Source of the DNA: a virus
Taxonomy: Duplodnaviria > Heunggongvirae > Uroviricota > Caudoviricetes
Strand: one strand, 5' to 3'
DNA: 39,434 bases
Virus record (IMG/VR): IMGVR_UViG_2541047689_000010
This document shows positions 3,316-34,103 of the stretch, piece after piece. Position numbers and translations under genes: made by a program. Every line of letters starts with the position of its first letter. Within the stretch, counting starts at the first letter, position 1. The notes under the pieces were generated by a model. That model ran no database searches. It was not told the DNA's origin and saw only the letters and a program-made list of their open reading frames with translations.

Positions 3316-6072
3316 TTAGCTACTTTCAAGCATTGCAAGACGTGATTCTATTTTTTCGATTCTTCTACGCAAATAAGCTGACTCAAGCCATAAACACTGG
3401 TCAGTACGGATACCCCACCTATTTCCAGCCTTGCAAACCAGAGTTCGCTCTTCTGTTTCGTATTCTTCTTCCATCTCAATTTCGACGCCATCCACAACTT
3501 TAGTGATCATCCTTACCGCCATCACTGGCGCGTATTTATCATCCCATTCATCGTAACAGAGAAGGCCAAATCTGGTTCCATCAATCCCATGCGCGAGGAA
3601 AGTGTCTCTCACTTGTTGTGCTATAACACCAAAATGCCAGCGGGCACCATCTCCCTTTTCCCTGACGGCATCAAGCCAGCGAAAAGCTACAATCCTGATA
3701 TCTCCCCATGCATCCAGAATTGCATCACCTTCATAACCACGAGACATATACAAGCTGAGCTCACTTGTACTAATCGGTTCACTTTTTTCTCTACCATCTG
3801 ATGTGTTTATCGAACCGTTCGCAGAATAAACCTGTGCCCATCTAAATGATGGTGCACCAAGAGATTTGCTGTTATCAATAATTGGTGAAAAATTACCTTT
3901 AATGGCAATATTTCCAGAGTCGCCGAATATATTAATAACTGCAGAGTCATCACCATGGTTTTTTACGCTTAAGTTTCTTGATGAAATATTTATATCTTTG
4001 TTATATCCACTAACATTAATCCATCTTTTACCATCAATGTGATACCCGTAAATATTTCCGTCTGATTGTTCGTCAGGTGACTCTCTAAGAACAATAGCAT
4101 CTGCTCCAGACGACCATTGTATTTTTGTATCTGTAGGCCTCCAGTTCTTTATAATGAACGAACCATCAGTAAACTCCGTTTTTATTTGTCTATTGTCTAC
4201 AAATGCGTCTCTTGGTTTAAACTCACTTGTGTTAACGCTGCTCTGAAGATCAGAAGCAAAAAATCTAAGATTTCCTGTATAACCCTGAGTCTCGGTCTGG
4301 TTATACGCAATCATAATTCCATTTTCAAACTCAGATGATGTTATTTTAACATCACGGCAATCACCAAAAATGCAATTTCCTTTATCAAATGTTGTTTGAG
4401 CTTTGAATTTATCAAACCTTAAATTACGAACAGGGAAACCATCAACCTCTAATGCAAAGGATGCAGGAAGGCCAAAGTATTCTGATGGCTTACCTGATGT
4501 ATGATCAAGAGTAGTGGCTACTGTATTCTCAAAAACAGTCCCGCTAAAATTATTACCAATTGACGGAAACCTGATTACACTTATTGTACCTTGTATTTCA
4601 GGAGAAATACCAGATAGTGTGATGTTAGCTCCATCAAATGATGCATCTGAATACGTATATACTGATTCACTGCCAGCAATTTTAAACTGTTTAACTGAAG
4701 TTATTCTCATCGACTTTTTATGTTTAAATGTCACTGAGCTTTCAGTATTACTTACAAGATCAATCTGAGGGCTATTCCTTATCGCGATCCCTGACTGGAC
4801 ATAAACGTTATTAAAGTGCGTTTTTTCAGGATTTCCCTTCATTGAAAGGCTCCCGTCATTTTCTGTCAGTAGTAGTCCTTTTACCCTCCAATAGCCGACA
4901 ATCTGTACGTTATCAATAACTGAATCACAGCTATCGTATACATGCAACCCTATATCCCAGTCATCACCCAATGAATAAGAATCAGGGTTATTGTATCCTT
5001 CAATACCATTTTTACTTACCATTATTCTCAGGTTGCGTAACTGTGATGCCCTGTTGATACTAACAGCTACGCTCATGGCTTTTGGTGTAGCAGGAGTAAC
5101 ACCTACAGAATCTTCATTTGTAAACTCAGTGAACTTACAAGATATCCCTTCAACAATTTTAACTGGTCTTTCATTAGAGATGTTAAAAAAATATTTGTTT
5201 TTTTCTCCATCACCAGTAAATACAAGATGGGTTCCTTTACTCCAACTTTTTAATAATCTTTCAGGCGCTGGTCTATATGTATCCCAATAATCAATGCCAT
5301 CACCAATTAAAGACACTCCAGGAGGCACATCTATGTTCTTAGAAATCATCCATTTACCTGCAGGTATTCTAACGACACTTGCACCAGAATTTATCGCATT
5401 AATTAACCATTCAGACGCATCAACTTCAAAATTTAATGCAGCATATCTTTGCTCAAACGGAACAAAATCAAGAGCGTTAACGTTATCCCGCATCTTATCC
5501 TGGAACGTTCGGTATACTGCTCCAGAACCATACTGAATAAACCAACCAAAACCACCAACAACTCCGGCGATTGCAGCATCAACATAATTGCGCATTGATC
5601 GATTATTTACAGCATCCTGCTCAAGTGATGGATCTGCAAGGTTAGAAATTTTGTTTTGCTTTGCATCGTAATATTTTGCAAGCAAAGATGGTTTCATCAA
5701 TGCACGTCTGAACCATCCAAAACATTGCTGGATCAGCATCGTCAGATAGTCAAAGGCATCTTCATGCACCTCGGGGAAAAATTTTCCCTGATTACGAAGA
5801 TCAGTCTCCTGCACCACATCAAGCACACGATCTATCGTAATTCGCCATCCAGCAGCAAGCGGCGACGGAAGAACAACAGAACCGCCACTATAAGTGCCCG
5901 CCCCTGTTACCGTATAACCGGTATCCAGAACCAATTCTGTTACGTTCCCGTTCAGGTCAGACACCTGAACAACCAGGTCGGATTTTTTGAAAATACGGAA
6001 GGTATACGGAAATGATGTCGTAGCTCCGTTACCTGTGTATTCGTTGTGGTCAACTTCGGTTGAGACCGTCAT
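3316..6072 (-). CDS. Tailspike / tail fibre protein with C-terminal intramolecular-chaperone (peptidase S74-like) domain
   Basis: 918 aa; long central Ser/Asn/Gly-rich region consistent with a beta-helical receptor-binding domain; C-terminal ...DGREKSEPISTSELSLYMS...WHFGVIAQQV... resembles self-cleaving chaperone domains of tailspikes/endosialidases. Confidence 0.8.
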   Translation of the reverse strand: MTVSTEVDHNEYTGNGATTSFPYTFRIFKKSDLVVQVSDLNGNVTELVLDTGYTVTGAGTYSGGSVVLPSPLAAGWRITIDRVLDVVQETDLRNQGKFFPEVHEDAFDYLTMLIQQCFGWFRRALMKPSLLAKYYDAKQNKISNLADPSLEQDAVNNRSMRNYVDAAIAGVVGGFGWFIQYGSGAVYRTFQDKMRDNVNALDFVPFEQRYAALNFEVDASEWLINAINSGASVVRIPAGKWMISKNIDVPPGVSLIGDGIDYWDTYRPAPERLLKSWSKGTHLVFTGDGEKNKYFFNISNERPVKIVEGISCKFTEFTNEDSVGVTPATPKAMSVAVSINRASQLRNLRIMVSKNGIEGYNNPDSYSLGDDWDIGLHVYDSCDSVIDNVQIVGYWRVKGLLLTENDGSLSMKGNPEKTHFNNVYVQSGIAIRNSPQIDLVSNTESSVTFKHKKSMRITSVKQFKIAGSESVYTYSDASFDGANITLSGISPEIQGTISVIRFPSIGNNFSGTVFENTVATTLDHTSGKPSEYFGLPASFALEVDGFPVRNLRFDKFKAQTTFDKGNCIFGDCRDVKITSSEFENGIMIAYNQTETQGYTGNLRFFASDLQSSVNTSEFKPRDAFVDNRQIKTEFTDGSFIIKNWRPTDTKIQWSSGADAIVLRESPDEQSDGNIYGYHIDGKRWINVSGYNKDINISSRNLSVKNHGDDSAVINIFGDSGNIAIKGNFSPIIDNSKSLGAPSFRWAQVYSANGSINTSDGREKSEPISTSELSLYMSRGYEGDAILDAWGDIRIVAFRWLDAVREKGDGARWHFGVIAQQVRDTFLAHGIDGTRFGLLCYDEWDDKYAPVMAVRMITKVVDGVEIEMEEEYETEERTLVCKAGNRWGIRTDQCLWLESAYLRRRIEKIESRLAMLESS

Positions 6073-6175
6073 GTTAAATCTCCAGATAGTCGCAGCACCC
6101 GTTGCGCCGCATATCTGGTTATTCTATTACCTGAAAAACCACATATGGATAGAAAGACTGTAAATACGAATAGAT

Positions 6176-6192
6176 ATTACCTTTCAGGTAAT
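6176..6192. promoter_or_regulatory. Operator-like dyad ATTACC-N5-GGTAAT (family copy)
   Basis: Perfect inverted repeat read directly; lies just upstream of a candidate promoter for gene 6268-6525. Confidence 0.5.
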
Positions 6193-6228: not shown

Positions 6229-6248
6229 TACTGTATAAATATACAGTT
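6229..6248. promoter_or_regulatory. LexA (SOS) box
   Basis: TACTGTATAAATATACAGTT matches the E. coli LexA consensus CTGT-N8-ACAG with AT-rich spacer; ends 20 nt upstream of the ATG at 6268. Confidence 0.65.
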
Positions 6249-6267: not shown

Positions 6268-6525
6268 ATGCAGCAGTATCACTATCCACTGGAAGACGGA
6301 TTTACCGAAAGGATTCACACGCCGGGAGGCGTCAGGTCACTGGTGGAGGGATCGCACTTGATGAAATTACTCCGGGATCTCGATAAGGATGGATTTAATG
6401 TCGATGGCCCACTTGCCGAACTGACTGCACTGATTAACTACGTCACCAGCTCACAGATGTCTATGCAGGATCTGCAAACACATCTCGACTATTGTGCCGA
6501 ACAATTACGAAAGCAAACCAGATAA
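6268..6525 (+). CDS. Small SOS-controlled protein homologous to the C-terminal domain of the adjacent Bro-N antirepressor (putative antirepressor)
   Basis: ATG with GGAG upstream, in frame with track ORF 6145-6525; about 85 aa; alignable with residues about 160-230 of the 6839-7531 product. Confidence 0.55.
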   Translation: MQQYHYPLEDGFTERIHTPGGVRSLVEGSHLMKLLRDLDKDGFNVDGPLAELTALINYVTSSQMSMQDLQTHLDYCAEQLRKQTR

Positions 6526-6555
6526 GGTTTGCAATTACCAAGTGGAGTGCTTATA

Positions 6556-6572
6556 TTTACCTTTGCGGTAAA
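6556..6572. promoter_or_regulatory. Operator-like dyad TTTACC-N5-GGTAAA embedded in a longer imperfect inverted repeat
   Basis: Read directly; flanked by GGAGTGC ... GCACTCC. Confidence 0.45.
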
Positions 6573-6838
6573 TTTACATCGCACTCCTCTTGTGCCATAG
6601 TAATCGGGCACTGGCAAAATCCAGTGCCGGGATTGGTCTCCCGGATTACTACAGAGGCACATATGCCGCATAAGCGGTTTTTTTATGTGTAAAGCGCACC
6701 TATTCTATGGTGGGCTGTGTGGGGGCACCGAAAGGTGCGCCGGGTTCCTTTGTAGCCGGTAAGACCAACTCTGCACAGTTCACCACCATCTGATTGGTCT
6801 CAGCGGTGGTGATTAACCTAACTACAAAGGTGATCGCC

Positions 6839-7531
6839 ATGAATACCAAACCTTCCATCTTTTCCTTTGAGTCATCCTGCCAGATCCGTATGTTCATGAT
6901 TGACGGAGAACCTTGGTTTGTCACCAAAGATGTGTGCAATGCTTTGAATATTGATGTTACACAAGCGAGAAAACTTGATAAAAAAGGCTGGAACAAAAAG
7001 GGGCTGTATTCAATACAGACCCCTGGTGGAATACAAGAACTATCCATCGTTTCAGAATCAGGTCTCTACATCCTTATTCTGCGTTGCAAAGAGGCAATGA
7101 CAGAGGGAACGAGAGCATTCAGATTTCTTGAATGGGTTACAGGTGAGGTTCTTCCTCAGATCCGCCGCACCGGAAGTTACATTAAAAACTCGCTCCCGCA
7201 GGAAGAACGCATAAAGATGGTTGCCGACCAGGTAGCCAACGCCACGGCGTCAGCAGTAATGCAGGCGATGAAGATAGAGAACAAAACCTACAGTGCCCCG
7301 CTGAAGCCCGGCTACCGCAGCCTGATTCACTCGCCGTCTGGTGTTCTCGGCCTGACGGAGAACTCACTGCTGATGAATCTGCTGAACCAGTTACAGGAAG
7401 ACGGGCACGACGTATCGGGCGCGGCGGCGGAGCTGACCACCATGTTCTGCTACATCGTCGGTGTGAGTAAATGCCTGCGTGATATCCAGACGCACGCGGA
7501 GTACATCAACGACAAGGCTGGGTTCTTCTGA
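6839..7531 (+). CDS. Antirepressor with N-terminal Bro-N domain
   Basis: Start at ATG (MNTKPSIF...) with SD AAGGTGA; N-terminus FESSCQIRMFMIDGEPWFVTKDVCNALNI is typical of Bro-N/phage antirepressor domains; followed by hairpin GGCACATGGATGTGCC plus T-rich tail. Confidence 0.75.
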   Translation: MNTKPSIFSFESSCQIRMFMIDGEPWFVTKDVCNALNIDVTQARKLDKKGWNKKGLYSIQTPGGIQELSIVSESGLYILILRCKEAMTEGTRAFRFLEWVTGEVLPQIRRTGSYIKNSLPQEERIKMVADQVANATASAVMQAMKIENKTYSAPLKPGYRSLIHSPSGVLGLTENSLLMNLLNQLQEDGHDVSGAAAELTTMFCYIVGVSKCLRDIQTHAEYINDKAGFF

Positions 7532-7596: not shown

Positions 7597-7613
7597 ATTA
7601 CCTTAAAGGTAAA
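7597..7613. promoter_or_regulatory. Operator-like dyad ATTACC-N5-GGTAAA overlapping a candidate -10 element
   Basis: Read directly; 25 nt upstream of the 7639 ATG. Confidence 0.5.
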
Positions 7614-7638: not shown

Positions 7639-7848
7639 ATGGGATTTTGGTTCGCTCGTACAAAAACGAGGGATAATGCACCCAGCCCTCAGGCAAAAAA
7701 TGCAGAAGTTCCGGCGTCAGCGCAGGTTAACAAGCGTGGTGGAGTATATATCTCATCACAGCAAATTTCTGAGCTTCCTGAGGTTAAGGAGATGCGTCGT
7801 CTCGCTGCTGCAATTGTTAAACAGGATCTTGCCACTGTAAGGAAGTAG
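7639..7848 (+). CDS. Small hydrophilic protein (69 aa), unknown function, translationally coupled to the downstream membrane protein
   Basis: SD GAGGAGGAG before ATG; stop TAG overlaps the GTG start of the next gene (TAGTG). Confidence 0.5.
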   Translation: MGFWFARTKTRDNAPSPQAKNAEVPASAQVNKRGGVYISSQQISELPEVKEMRRLAAAIVKQDLATVRK

Positions 7849-8714
7849 TGTTGCTAGCTCTTCTAATTATCCCAATCCTGGTTAGCGGTTATATTATGAT
7901 AACCGCTAACCAGTATCATTATTTCCGTTTATACCGACACGAAGGCCAGCTTCTTTATATGAAAGTAGCGGCACTAGGTACATATTGCCTTGTTGCATCA
8001 GTAATAATTGCAGCCGCTATAAAATATAAATGGCCTGATTTTCACCTAGTTCACGATATGGTGGAAACTTTTAATGTAACATCAAAACCAGAAACAGATA
8101 GAATTTACATGTGGCTGCTTCTTCTCTCAGCCACATCCATTTGCTTCTCTTTGTGTTATGTGTCTGTTGTGTGGGTGAAAGATTTTCTTCTTGGTTGTTT
8201 TTATAAACGTGATATTTACGAGCAAAAAACAGAGGCAATGAAGGCCAGAGTACTGCGAAAAACTTACTCGCAAGGTTCTTTAGACTTACTATTGCTTGAT
8301 GCTATTGAATCGGATCCTAAACGACCAATGCTGATTACTTTATCATCAAACAAAGTGTATGTTGGAATAATAAATGGTTCTGGTGAACCAACGGAAAATC
8401 AGGGTCCGCATCAGCACATATCTTTTGTTCCTTTAATGTCAGGATACAGGAACAAAGAAAACTTATCTGTCACATTCACTAATGCTTATCCAGGAGAAAT
8501 ACAGGTCAAGCGGACTGCAGCAATAAGAGGAATTAGCAGAAAGAAAGTGCCAGGACTTGAGATCATGGTGTCTATTGACGAAATAAGTTATATATCATGG
8601 TTTGATTTTGAAGTATATAAAGCAACAAATAACAAAGTAGAATCCAGGGGGCACGTTATTCGTGTTACCAAAAATGGAAGAAATATATATCAAAGAAATA
8701 GCAAAAAAGAATAG
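7848..8714 (+). CDS. Membrane protein with three N-terminal TM helices and a roughly 170-aa C-terminal soluble domain; unknown function (candidate exclusion/abortive-infection effector)
   Basis: GTG start with AAGGAAG SD; hydrophobic segments LLALLIIPILVSGYIMI, VAALGTYCLVASVIIAAAI, YMWLLLLSATSICFSLCYVSVVW; gene is visibly AT-rich compared with flanking phage genes; intrinsic terminator directly after the stop. Confidence 0.55.
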   Translation: MLLALLIIPILVSGYIMITANQYHYFRLYRHEGQLLYMKVAALGTYCLVASVIIAAAIKYKWPDFHLVHDMVETFNVTSKPETDRIYMWLLLLSATSICFSLCYVSVVWVKDFLLGCFYKRDIYEQKTEAMKARVLRKTYSQGSLDLLLLDAIESDPKRPMLITLSSNKVYVGIINGSGEPTENQGPHQHISFVPLMSGYRNKENLSVTFTNAYPGEIQVKRTAAIRGISRKKVPGLEIMVSIDEISYISWFDFEVYKATNNKVESRGHVIRVTKNGRNIYQRNSKKE

Positions 8715-8736
8715 CCCGCGCTGCGGGCTTTTTTGT
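8714..8736 (+). terminator. Intrinsic terminator
   Basis: GCCCGC-gct-GCGGGC followed by TTTTTTGT, starting at the stop codon of 7848-8714. Confidence 0.6.
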
Positions 8737-8770
8737 GTCTGCGGATTCCCGCCCGGGCGGCGGTGGCATT

Positions 8771-8798
8771 CGTTAAAAACAAGGCCGCGAAAGCGGCC
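8771..8798 (-). terminator. Intrinsic terminator (minus strand)
   Basis: Minus-strand GGCCGC-TTTC-GCGGCC followed by TTGTTTTTAACG; directly downstream of palindrome copy 1. Confidence 0.55.
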
Positions 8799-8799
8799 T

Positions 8800-8811
8800 G
8801 TGACATGTCAC
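8800..8811. repeat. Perfect 12-bp palindrome GTGACATGTCAC, copy 1 of 3
   Basis: Read directly; one nt from the stop codon of 8813-9263 and immediately before the terminator hairpin. Confidence 0.8.
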
Positions 8812-8812
8812 G

Positions 8813-9263
8813 CTACTTGCGAAATCTTTCTTTACCCTTCCAGCCAGTAGATGTTAGTTCAGGATGAATGGTTCCCAATATAAAGCCAACCATAGCGGAG
8901 CGAGGATCTTCTATTTTATCCGTTAATTCTTCGGCATAACTCACAGGCAACCAAGCAACAAGATCACCAATCCTCAGCTTTGGTCCTTTGCTGTAAGATG
9001 AATCGGCAATAACAAAAAATCCACCATCAGCTGAGCACACCTTCAGCATTGCCCTTTGTCTTCCAGAATCTAGCAAAACTGGCTGTTCCCCACTTGGACC
9101 AGGTATGATGATGGCTGGCATTGGTTTATTGGCTGAAAGGCTTGTGTCAAGATACTTACACGCATACTCAAAAGCTGAAAAGTTATCCTTAAAGATAAGA
9201 GGTTGAATTTTATTGCTAACCTCCTTACCACCGATTAATCTGTTGATCATCTTCTTGAACATA
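8813..9263 (-). CDS. Hypothetical protein (about 149 aa), unknown function
   Basis: Start taken at ATG (MFKKMINR...) with SD AGGTGA 5 nt upstream; lies in the AT-rich accessory block. Confidence 0.5.
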
Positions 9264-9274
9264 AAGGTCACCTA

Positions 9275-9715
9275 ATGATTAAGCCGATGCACGCTATTAC
9301 AGCTACCGTTTTGTTTATCCTACCAATTTTTTCGTTTGCAAACGACATATGTTTTAAGAATTTAATAAATGAGGATATGTGTGCACATGCAAACAAAATT
9401 GCATCAGAAGCAGGAAAGTCACTTCCCATAAAATTGAATGATAATATGTCTATTGTTTCAATAAATGCAATACTAAACAAACTTTTAGTTGTAGCGCATC
9501 TTAATTACAACAACAGCTATTTATCAAAAGTTTATAACGGTGATGTAACCTTAGAAAATAAATTAAAGAGTGTAATGCGAAATTATTCAAAATCGAGCAT
9601 TTGCTCCAACAGGCAAATGAAAGCATTTATTCACCTTGGCGGAGAGATTGAATATAGGTATGTATTTAGTGATGGCAATATATTTGATACATACGCCATC
9701 ACTAATTGTGAATAG
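9275..9715 (+). CDS. Secreted/periplasmic small protein with cleavable signal peptide and four Cys; unknown function
   Basis: N-terminus MIKPMHAITATVLFILPIFSFA then NDICF...; AT-rich; stop abuts the stop of the convergent tail gene. Confidence 0.5.
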   Translation: MIKPMHAITATVLFILPIFSFANDICFKNLINEDMCAHANKIASEAGKSLPIKLNDNMSIVSINAILNKLLVVAHLNYNNSYLSKVYNGDVTLENKLKSVMRNYSKSSICSNRQMKAFIHLGGEIEYRYVFSDGNIFDTYAITNCE

Positions 9716-21124: not shown

Positions 21125-21175
21125 CTTCTTTCTCCATTAGTGGGTCTGTTACGATCCACAGGTTAATAACAGGCG

Positions 21176-25495: not shown

Positions 25496-25572
25496 GTGGC
25501 ATTAGCTCAGTTGGACAGAGCAACCGCCTTCTAAGCGGTTGGTCGCAGGTTCGAATCCTGCATGCCACACCA
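25496..25572 (+). tRNA. tRNA-Arg (anticodon UCU, reads AGA)
   Basis: Manual cloverleaf: acceptor GTGGCAT/ATGCCAC, D-arm GCTC...GAGC, anticodon stem ACCGC/GCGGT with loop CTTCTAA, T-arm GCAGG-TTCGAAT-CCTGC, discriminator A and encoded CCA. Confidence 0.8.
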
Positions 25573-25770
25573 GAATCACGCCTAAGGACCGTGATGCCAG
25601 AAGTTCCAGGGGCTTGGCGGTGATGGTTTCCCTTGAAGGACTATCACCGCCCTTTTTACAGCAGGACGCCATTGCGATGACTTCATGCTGTAAACCCGTA
25701 CAGCCACGGAAGGCATAACTCATTGCTTCCAGTTCGCCCGGTTCGCCGGGCATTTTTTTAAGGTGAGATT

Positions 25771-33399: not shown

Positions 33400-33464
33400 T
33401 TCACCCATAAGGTAACAAAAATCAAGGATAGTTACCTATGAGGTGCATTTACCTGTTGGGTAAT
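33400..33464. promoter_or_regulatory. Immunity-region operators: three adjacent dyad sites (33400-33416, 33431-33447, 33448-33464) between the divergent cro-like and repressor genes
   Basis: TTCACC-cataa-GGTAAC, GTTACC-tatga-GGTGCA, TTTACC-tgttg-GGTAAT read directly. Confidence 0.55.
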
Positions 33465-33518: not shown

Positions 33519-34103
33519 ATGAAAAGTATCCAGGACGTCCGCAGGCAAAATCTCAACGACTTGATCGACCGTGAATTCAATGGTGTTCAGACGCGGATGG
33601 CAGAAAAACTTGGAACTCAGGCAAATCTGGTAAACCGCTGGGCTCTTGGCAAGAAGGTTATCGGCGACCAGGTTGCGCGAAAAATTGAAGCTGCCGCCAA
33701 TAAACCCCGTAACTGGCTTGATATCGATCGCTCGCTTTCTCAGGAAGGTTTTCAGCCTGTCGGCCCAAGCGACATTGGTCAGCTGGCGGCTCACAACCTG
33801 GAACGCTGGATGAGCGAAAGCCGCGACCTTTCAACGCAGGGAAAACTTCACCGCGCATCCGGCGTCGCCCAGGTGACAATCAGTCGCCTGTTAAACAATG
33901 AGGTCAGCGTTTCCATTTCCACCCTGGAGAATGTTGCATCCGCATTCGGGCGTCACGGATATGAACTACTGATTCACCCGCACGACCCTGCGACTATCAA
34001 CTATGACCGCTCGCGCTACGCATTGTTACCCGAAACCGAGAAAGCAAAGATCGAAAGTTACATTGAATTTGTCATCAACCAGAACGAAAAAAGCAAACAA
34101 TAA
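33519..34103 (+). CDS. Prophage repressor (CI-like) with two helix-turn-helix domains and no LexA-type (S24) autocleavage domain
   Basis: 194 aa; two HTH-like segments (...QTRMAEKLGTQANLVNRWALGKK... and ...LHRASGVAQVTISRLLNNEV...); no Ala-Gly/Ser-Lys peptidase motifs seen; divergent from cro-like gene; followed by a strong terminator. Confidence 0.65.
   Translation: MKSIQDVRRQNLNDLIDREFNGVQTRMAEKLGTQANLVNRWALGKKVIGDQVARKIEAAANKPRNWLDIDRSLSQEGFQPVGPSDIGQLAAHNLERWMSESRDLSTQGKLHRASGVAQVTISRLLNNEVSVSISTLENVASAFGRHGYELLIHPHDPATINYDRSRYALLPETEKAKIESYIEFVINQNEKSKQ

Follow-up and report, generated by a model that had tools for sequence, protein, structure and literature searches.

Two antirepressors with a homologous effector module, one LexA-controlled and one downstream of an IsrK/C4-type RNA leader, in a phiV10-like temperate phage of Escherichia coli

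Why would a temperate phage carry two adjacent genes for the same kind of antirepressor module, and to what would each of them respond? The question is raised by a viral sequence of 39,434 nucleotides (nt), IMG/VR record IMGVR_UViG_2541047689_000010 (Duplodnaviria; Heunggongvirae; Uroviricota; Caudoviricetes), the whole of which we refer to as the window, in which a small stand-alone antirepressor gene lies upstream of a second gene whose product joins a Bro-N domain to a C-terminal module of the same type. The window is a temperate podophage of Escherichia coli of the phiV10/epsilon15-like type (Uetakevirus), with a tyrosine integrase at its end; the region of the two genes is 91-97% identical to that of phiV10, TL-2011b, vB_EcoP_ZX5 (hereafter ZX5), EC.W1-9 and other E. 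coli members of the genus. Prophages matching this region were found in 545 of 5426 complete E. coli genomes, and the small gene in 528 of the 5426. We propose that the locus probably provides two inputs on one repressor, in which each of two antirepressors, homologous in their effector module but wired to different signals, can inactivate a non-cleavable repressor, Rep.

The initial annotation had proposed two open reading frames (ORFs) whose products are related over most of the length of the smaller one. Both were recovered at the positions it gave:

6268-6525, + strand: ant, the small antirepressor gene, 85 amino acids (aa), orthologue of the Ant of Salmonella phage SPC32H
6839-7531, + strand: the second antirepressor gene, 230 aa, with a Bro-N domain (aa 16-106, 6884-7156), a linker and an Ant-like C-terminal module (aa 149-225, 7283-7513)

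BLASTP gave an ungapped alignment of small-product residues 2-75 to residues 149-222 of the large product, with 31 of 74 positions identical (42%, E = 6e-16), and the shared residue pattern that had been noticed by inspection reappears in the midline of this alignment (IH.P.GV..L.E.S.LM.LL..L..DG..V.G..AELT...Y...D.QTH..Y). Profile comparison agreed: both products matched the PDB chain 5D50_E, 'Anti-repressor protein' (small product, residues 2-84, E = 4.1e-47; large product, residues 149-225, E = 9.1e-14 in a search of 177,635 sequences), as well as PHROG 450 (E = 9e-48 and E = 3.2e-37, respectively). Because the same PDB chain and the same PHROG were matched independently by both, the similarity is significant and reflects true homology rather than chance. 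Fourteen columns are invariant across the small-Ant and fused-module clades. In every genome examined the two copies are only 37-43% identical to each other, and they therefore stem from an old duplication without sign of homogenization. The fused C-terminal module is a paralogue of SPC32H-type Ant; it is not a strict member of that type, being fused to Bro-N and lacking a LexA box.

The small product is 88% identical to SPC32H_020, annotated 'ant' in KC911856 (Salmonella phage SPC32H), and of the same length, and its gene occupies the same genomic slot, beside and divergent from the tailspike/tail-fibre gene. The ratio of nonsynonymous to synonymous substitution rates (dN/dS) of the small gene is ~0.06 in comparisons with SPC32H and Tyrion, which indicates strong purifying selection. 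SPC32H Ant is reportedly a LexA-controlled antirepressor that has been crystallized with Rep (PDB 5D50 and 5D4Z), and it is said to bind the C-terminal domains of Rep without competing for the DNA-binding surface. In one published account, the SPC32H Ant tetramer engages a pair of Rep dimers, and the Rep tetramer that binds DNA is thereby split into dimers (PMC9638917). The window encodes a homologue of this repressor:

33519-34103, + strand: Rep, 194 aa, the presumed target of both antirepressors (5D50_A, E = 3.5e-42)

The Rep of the window is 42% identical to that of SPC32H (42-44% depending on the comparison; 53% in the N-terminal and 42% in the C-terminal domain). It contains two helix-turn-helix-type regions and no Peptidase_S24 domain, and because it lacks this autocleavage domain an antirepressor would be needed for SOS induction. 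The presence of a Rep homologue and the closeness of the small protein to the crystallized SPC32H Ant both favour the earlier presumption that the shared module is the repressor-interacting one.

The stand-alone copy had also been placed under LexA control, and a near-consensus box at a conserved position supports this assignment:

6229-6248, no strand assigned: LexA (SOS) box TACTGTATAAATATACAGTT, 18 of 20 positions matching the 20-mer consensus, 22 nt upstream of the ant ATG

The CTGT-N8-ACAG core of the box, CTGTATAAATATACAG, lies at 6231-6246, and the box keeps its offset from the ant start in phiV10, SPC32H and Tyrion. The window holds four matches to this core (at 5051, 6231, 21146 and 25688) against 0.4 expected; the other three (5051-5066, 21146-21161 and 25688-25703), at least the first of which is within a coding region, lack the AT-rich spacer of a good SOS box and are probably not functional. 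A search by eye for the -35/-10 pair of the ant promoter gave no convincing conserved pair. A 126-aa reading of small ant from an ATG at 6145 was rejected, as it would cross the LexA box. Database clusters with hundreds of members call the small protein 126-127 aa long (e.g., P0003, with 833 members); because the reading from 6145 spans both the LexA box and an operator-like palindrome, we regard these calls as a systematic misannotation of the start site.

In the second gene, the Bro-N domain (PF02498, residues 16-106, E = 1.8e-13) scored 51.4 bits against a curated cut-off of 25.6, while P22_AR_N, at 17.7 bits, fell below its own Pfam cut-off. The fused protein has 963 homologues at E <= 1e-10, from Escherichia, Salmonella, Klebsiella, Citrobacter, Enterobacter and other genera; among the 120 homologues listed, lengths are 210-286 aa (mostly 226-280) and identities 66-100%. 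Its C-terminal module has a dN/dS of 0.18-0.28, compared with the 0.06 of small ant, a pattern of purifying selection under looser constraint. Two other readings of this gene were tried and rejected: a pseudogene is ruled out by the number of homologues, by purifying selection and by the phenotype of the ZX5 orthologue described below, and an internal start at M139/M142, which would give a short product like Ant2 of P1, has no evident Shine-Dalgarno sequence.

Comparison of loci indicated which part of the fusion is constant. At the same position, E. coli C25 encodes an AntA-type protein (PF08346) and E. coli 2016C04-116 an ORF6N-type protein; the last ~80 residues of both are 99-100% identical to those of the window's protein and their N-terminal parts are unalignable with it. 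A distant relative, whose small Ant is 43% identical, has the same layout of small ant, isrK and C4 followed by a Rha-type N-domain on the module. Word-indexed searches with the small protein and with the C-terminal module returned almost only short stand-alone or truncated proteins and were misleading on architectures; an exhaustive hidden Markov model profile search and a search of E. coli genomes were used instead. Across 1.84 billion representatives, the exhaustive search found the module in only 68 clusters, where it either stands alone (80-95 aa) or is C-terminal to Bro-N, AntA, Rha or ORF6N. Of the records in the phage collection, 34-35 contain the module and 37 the Rep family, largely the same ones, and the module and Rep matches listed were all from epsilon15/phiV10-type phages of Salmonella, Escherichia, Enterobacter and Klebsiella. 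The small number of clusters and the co-distribution with Rep mark the module as narrow, lineage-specific and tied to the Rep family; the N-domain is generic. Since the C-terminal module stays constant while four N-domains are swapped before it, it is presumably the specificity-bearing, Rep-binding effector.

A published experiment bears on this reading. ORF4 of ZX5, a Bro-N "anti-repressor", is 81% identical overall to the fused protein of the window and 100% identical from aa 108 to the end (123 residues), and the Reps of the two phages are 99.5% identical. With ORF4 overexpressed, the number of lysogens dropped from 1e9 to 1e6 and transcription of the repressor by 75% (Li et al. 2022, PMC9782041). 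The same study names only the Bro-N protein as antirepressor and mentions neither small Ant, LexA, SPC32H nor the RNAs considered here; it also describes the function of Bro-N in antirepressors as unknown and the domain as generally held to be DNA-binding (PMC9782041).

The module also occurs alone outside the setting of the two genes. In three Klebsiella chromosomes (L006-L008, 3665-4873) we observed a 95-aa stand-alone protein of the fused-type clade that starts exactly at the linker motif MPA(I/T)LE. It lies in a small island, AlpA - Ant95 - HicB - HicA, beside chromosomal genes; this island could be what is left of a prophage, or else a satellite-like element with the effector module alone.

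How is the fused gene controlled? The initial annotation had assigned it a promoter other than that of ant, and a separate promoter-like site without a LexA box does precede it; what had gone unnoticed is that a complete IsrK/C4 cassette lies between this site and the gene. An Rfam scan of the intergenic region gave three matches, all on the + strand, and these are listed here with the elements recognized around them:

6573-6601, + strand: putative P-isrK, promoter-like, TTTACA-17-CATAGT, with TG before the -10
6595-6647, + strand: c4-a1b1 (RF03163), 39.9 bits, below the gathering threshold of 46.7
6608-6684, + strand: IsrK-type small RNA (Rfam RF01394), 74.7 bits (gathering 50), model positions 1-77 of 77
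6633-6639 and 6649-6657, + strand: IsrK decoy sites complementary to C4, a1 (UUGGUCU) and b1 (CUACAGAGG)
6665-6686, + strand: intrinsic terminator of IsrK, stem 6665-6678 followed by a T run
6703-6790, + strand: C4-type antisense RNA (Rfam RF01695), 78.6 bits (gathering 45), model positions 1-87 of 87
6747-6755 and 6761-6768, + strand: C4 pairing regions, loop b' (CCUUUGUAG) and region a' (AAGACCAA)
6794-6800 and 6822-6830, + strand: C4 target sites, a2 (UUGGUCU) and b2 (CUACAAAGG), b2 overlapping the Shine-Dalgarno sequence AGGUGA (6828-6833) of the Bro-N gene

The -10 region of the putative promoter, GCCATAGT, is invariant in four phages (window, phiV10, Tyrion and Kp4865-1), the IsrK match begins 7 nt past this -10, and the IsrK region has a fold z-score of -4.45. 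Complementarity of C4 to its targets is exact, over 9 nt between loop b' and b2 and over 7 nt between a' and a2, and copies of both targets sit in IsrK as a1 and b1. An isrK-C4 pair also precedes the fused gene in phiV10, Tyrion, Klebsiella phage Kp4865-1, two E. coli prophages and the distant relative with the Rha-type protein (L013). Across eight loci, Gifsy-1 included, the C4 loops and both targets co-vary: there are at least five b-types (CUACAAAGG, CUAAAAGG, CUAAGUGG, CUAGUAGG and UCACCG) and three a-types (GGUCU, GGCGU and GAGAC). The window combines GGUCU with CUACAAAGG, phiV10 and ZX5 combine GGCGU with CUAAAAGG, and the latter two have matching 1-nt deletions in b', b1 and b2. Pairings between a C4 and its own targets extend over 7-9 nt, compared with 4-7 nt for cross-type pairings, although for the b-loop of C25 the margin is just 8 versus 7. 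Because the C4 loops are complementary both to the Shine-Dalgarno site and to the IsrK decoy and co-vary with them, the Bro-N gene is best read, from these pairings, as the "ant" of a cassette of the P1 immI or Gifsy-1 isrK-anrP type. The leader is itself widespread, with matches in 237 phage records, mostly of Shiga toxin (Stx) phages and including Gifsy-1.

As the terminator at 6665-6686 separates putative P-isrK from the Bro-N gene, transcripts from either promoter must read through it to reach that gene. Between the ant stop codon and the IsrK terminator (6526-6686) we observed no further terminator, and because none follows ant, SOS-induced ant transcripts should carry the a1/b1 decoys at their 3' side and could titrate C4. 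In SPC32H a hairpin, read by eye, directly follows ant and is apparently its own terminator; in E. coli C25 and Kp4865-1, ant and isrK are separated by an insertion of other DNA. A 28-codon ORF (6707-6793) lies inside the C4 RNA and may correspond to orf45 of Gifsy-1. The equivalent stretch of ZX5 (L011, 1062-1175) is annotated 'ash family protein', and in L013 it has been absorbed into a 319-aa gene call; both calls most probably reflect the C4 RNA gene.

A further element links the two genes to the repressor. The palindrome TTACC-N5-GGTAA, counted with at most one mismatch, occurs at 14 sites in the window, compared with 0.68-1.1 expected (~13-fold enrichment), with comparable enrichment in SPC32H (18 sites), Tyrion (15) and Kp4865-1 (15). 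In the window the sites span 2948-34237 and precede many operons (e.g., 31080/31142, 34161/34223, 28286/28304, 25159 and 33064). Several pairs, beside rep and elsewhere, are exactly 62 bp apart, and this spacing recurs in SPC32H, Tyrion and Kp4865-1. These patterns suggest a genus-wide operator shared by Reps that are 44-78% identical, with perhaps one Rep tetramer bridging two sites. The copies closest to the genes discussed here are the following:

6177-6191, no strand assigned: candidate Rep operator TTACCTTTCAGGTAA, 52 nt ahead of the LexA box, a spacing also found in SPC32H, Tyrion and Kp4865-1
6557-6571, no strand assigned: candidate Rep operator TTACCTTTGCGGTAA, abutting the -35 of putative P-isrK
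7598-7612, no strand assigned: candidate Rep operator TTACCTTAAAGGTAA, downstream of the fused gene and before the cargo ORFs
33401-33415 and 33449-33463, no strand assigned: candidate Rep operators in the rep-cro intergenic region, with a degenerate copy between them; SPC32H has an equivalent triplet

The half-sites of the palindrome at 6557-6571 are invariant in the window, phiV10, Tyrion and Kp4865-1, with variable flanks, and the rep-cro intergenic regions of four phages hold two or three copies. From these positions, including those between rep and cro, we infer that the palindrome is the operator of Rep. If so, the second cassette would be doubly controlled, by Rep at its promoter and by C4 at translation, as immI of P1 is by C1 and C4.

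Taken together, these elements outline a switch with two inputs. In the one, LexA would repress small ant through the SOS box at 6229-6248; DNA damage would remove LexA, and the Ant then made would assemble (as a tetramer, by analogy with SPC32H), bind Rep and split the Rep tetramer into dimers. We hold this route from SOS to Rep disassembly, as predicted from the close SPC32H parallel, with high confidence. In the other, the promoter at 6573-6601, probably controlled by Rep through the palindrome at 6557-6571, would drive isrK, C4 and the Bro-N gene; the majority of transcripts would end at the IsrK terminator, and read-through would yield C4 RNA, whose loops would pair with a2 and b2 (6794-6830) and mask the ribosome-binding site of the Bro-N gene, such that no protein is made in the lysogen. 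The physiological trigger would be whatever lifts this block: translation may open when the a1/b1 sites of IsrK titrate C4, as IsrK activates anrP in Gifsy-1, and likewise on infection of a cell in which a resident relative produces C4 with a different specificity, as between P1 and P7. The Ant-like C-terminal module would then inactivate Rep, with the Bro-N domain acting as an interchangeable accessory. Our confidence in this C4-silenced route, including the final step on Rep, is moderate. The initial annotation had offered two induction inputs or a decoy relationship as possible outcomes of the duplication; the former fits the evidence, the ZX5 overexpression included (PMC9782041), and the latter found no support.

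This interpretation must be made cautiously, since several observations weigh against it. The fused module is just 42% identical to Ant. The small Ants of E. coli and Salmonella phages are 88% identical although their Reps are only ~43% identical, so Ant sequence is uncoupled from Rep type; either Ant recognizes a conserved surface of Rep, or the ant-tailspike segment has been exchanged independently of the immunity region. The fused module, for its part, diverges roughly in step with its own Rep (78% and 78% identity for Tyrion, 52% and 46% for Klebsiella), yet this comparison of Ant and Rep co-evolution covers four lineages, which is too thin, and the small Ant is discordant in it. The fused gene of phiV10 (L001, 3890-4569) is frameshifted within the Ant-like module and annotated as a 194-aa protein plus a 29-aa ORF, which shows that a temperate phage can be viable without the second antirepressor; PAS61, a phage with the same Rep, also lacks the gene, as does every Salmonella member in the phage collection. 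In the ZX5 study the protein was expressed at very high levels as a glutathione S-transferase (GST) fusion, and the evidence from it is indirect (PMC9782041). An AlphaFold2 model of the full-length fusion, built from a 23-sequence alignment, was too poor for use (predicted local distance difference test score, pLDDT, 53.5; predicted template-modelling score, pTM, 0.32). If Rep shuts the second promoter in lysogens, moreover, the source of C4 there would be unexplained, save by a second constitutive promoter as in P1. As a separate observation, the O157 typing phages 9 and 10 apparently share the phiV10 frameshift, giving the same two-piece match.

One may postulate alternative scenarios for the fused protein. 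It might mainly target the Reps of other, related prophages, as an anti-immunity or crosstalk weapon acting in trans, and leave induction of its own prophage to small Ant. The low identity of the two modules within each genome would be compatible with this, as would the existence in the genus of at least two Rep types that are 44% identical; antirepressors acting on heteroimmune repressors are documented for the Gifsy and Fels prophages (PMC3121763), and phages with the same Rep vary widely in C4 specificity, as expected of an inter-phage weapon. Against it, ZX5 ORF4, with an identical C-terminal module, struck the lysogeny of ZX5 itself, whose Rep is nearly that of the window, and the divergence of the fused module roughly tracks its own Rep. 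We consider this scenario unlikely as the principal role; it overlaps with the proposal of two inputs on one repressor and does not exclude it.

Two further alternatives would deny the fused protein any direct action on Rep. The C-terminal module could be a mere oligomerization domain of a Bro-N, AntA or ORF6N DNA-binding protein whose job, for example in host or phage transcription control or in anti-defence, is unrelated to Rep. This would suit the general view of Bro-N-type domains as DNA-binding and their unexplained role in antirepressors (PMC9782041), and the more relaxed evolution of the module relative to small ant; but four unrelated N-domains swapped before a constant C-terminal module is the opposite of what an N-domain carrying the specific function would predict, the module is confined to genomes with the Rep family, and the ZX5 phenotype also speaks against it, such that we find it quite improbable. 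Alternatively, the fused protein could be a decoy or modulator that co-assembles with small Ant by way of a common oligomerization surface, poisoning or buffering the tetramer and so setting the threshold of SOS induction without inactivating Rep itself. Mixed oligomers are conceivable, given that SPC32H Ant is described as acting as a tetramer (PMC9638917) and that the two modules share 14 invariant positions, and co-expression is possible with no terminator between ant and isrK. Overexpression of the ZX5 orthologue, however, pushed towards lysis rather than lysogeny, and an inhibitor of induction would be an unexpected product of a gene under a tight translational repressor, which is a hallmark of the antirepressor genes of P1 and Gifsy-1; this scenario therefore seems very improbable.

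The proposal of two inputs on one repressor can be extended, tentatively and with a good deal less conviction, to a broader scenario in which a duplicate of the SOS antirepressor came to serve as the exchangeable 'warhead' of a cassette like immI of P1, adding an RNA-based second layer of immunity together with an SOS feed-forward through read-through from ant into isrK. Phages with the same Rep and operators do differ in C4 loop/target specificity, with at least six a/b combinations in the eight loci. Were this scenario correct, a superinfecting relative not recognized by the resident C4 could express its BroN-, AntA- or ORF6N-Ant protein, inactivate the resident Rep, and thereby both escape immunity and induce the resident prophage; DNA damage could likewise feed forward from the small to the large antirepressor, the a1/b1 decoys on ant transcripts titrating C4.

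Downstream of the antirepressor genes, between them and the virion genes, four cargo ORFs occupy 7639-9715 (69 aa; 288 aa, with an N-terminal part that looks hydrophobic by eye; 152 aa, on the - strand; and 146 aa). They match only PHROGs of unknown function, and Pfam and PADLOC scans of the four gave no match. The equivalent slot of SPC32H holds one gene, for a 46-aa membrane protein, from which we conclude that this is a variable moron slot; the operator-like palindrome at 7598-7612 precedes it. A transfer RNA (tRNA) gene lies at 25496-25569 on the + strand (Rfam tRNA, 74.6 bits); SPC32H has a tRNA-Arg near its terminase genes.

These results may be of use beyond this locus. The shared module identifies the likely business end of IsrK/C4-controlled antirepressors in this lineage, and it joins two literatures that have been unconnected, on the SPC32H Ant-Rep switch and on the IsrK/C4-controlled Bro-N, AntA and ORF6N antirepressors whose active part was unclear till now. 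It provides a testable model for a type of prophage present in about one in ten complete E. coli genomes. Annotation can also be corrected: small ant is "hypothetical" in most records and often given 126-127 aa, the two RNAs are unannotated or called as ORFs, and the Bro-N protein is the only antirepressor named in the published study of ZX5, small Ant going unmentioned there.

All parts of the locus are of known kinds, belonging to the SPC32H Ant family, to C4/IsrK cassettes and to the shuffled Bro-N-type regulators. With SPC32H the window shares the Ant/Rep/LexA switch, namely the ant orthologue (88%), the tailspike slot, the LexA box, the upstream palindrome and the two-domain Rep family; it differs in that SPC32H and all its Salmonella relatives in the phage collection have one ant only, whereas the window adds a 1-kilobase isrK-C4-BroN-ant cassette, and in that its Rep is only 42% identical despite the similarity of the Ants. 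Phage regulators with Bro-N, KilA-N, AntA, Rha and ORF6N domains are said to have shuffled C-terminal domains. The fused protein resembles them in joining an N-domain to a variable C-domain, here with four N-domains on the same C-terminal module; it departs from the general pattern in that its C-terminal partner is tied to a crystallized protein that binds a repressor, so that the effector role falls to the C-terminal part. Other antirepressor systems are more distant: Tum of coliphage 186 is a LexA-controlled antirepressor, and P22 Ant belongs to a second immunity region outside immC, a bipartite immunity in which control is exerted by Mnt, Arc and sar RNA and not by C4. We detected no sequence relationship of the window's proteins with Tum or with P22 Ant (the P22_AR_N score noted above being below its cut-off).

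The immI operon of P1 and P7 reportedly has the order c4 - icd - ant1/ant2. A published account states that C4 RNA blocks ant expression in immI, that loop/target specificity sets heteroimmunity between P1 and P7, and that in P1 a C1 operator and C4 both control ant (PMC8198154). The window resembles P1 in having a C4 of the same Rfam family whose two loops pair with upstream a1/b1 sites and with downstream a2/b2 sites over the ribosome-binding site, in the polymorphism of loop/target specificity among relatives, and in pairing a small primary antirepressor (Coi in P1) with a secondary one. The candidate Rep operator at 6557-6571 would be the counterpart of Op51, the repressor operator at the P1 promoter. 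The window differs in lacking an icd-like coupled gene between C4, which ends at 6790, and the gene start at 6839; the variant locus L010, unlike the window, has an extra 168-aa ORF there that overlaps the antirepressor start. The N-domain of the window is Bro-N rather than the AntA of P1, with AntA variants occupying this locus in other E. coli; the Uetakevirus Ant module serves as C-terminal effector; and the phage is a 39-kilobase integrating podovirus, whereas P1 is a plasmid prophage.

A further parallel in layout is Gifsy-1, whose leader is alignable with that of the window (blastn, 67.6% over 84% of the query). At its isrK-orf45-anrP locus, the short IsrK RNA switches on translation of the mRNA made by read-through, and AnrP acts as inducer of the prophage (Hershko-Shalev et al. 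2016, PMC4825925), and a separate antirepressor, GfoA, is LexA-controlled (Lemire et al. 2011, PMC3121763). Both phages therefore have an IsrK-type region with a terminator, a C4-like RNA (STnc1160 in Gifsy-1), an antirepressor with a KilA-N/Bro-type N-domain, and a separate small LexA-controlled antirepressor, i.e., two inputs. AnrP consists of ORF6N and a C-terminal region without similarity to the window's protein, a build that would fit a C-terminal part matched to each phage's own repressor. As P1 (Coi and Ant) and Gifsy-1 (GfoA and AnrP) already have two antirepressors under different control, the arrangement described here is not a new principle. In the window the two antirepressors are adjacent and have their effector module in common; new, it appears, is the occurrence of homologous effector modules in both antirepressors of a single phage, one of them with a structure solved in complex with its repressor.

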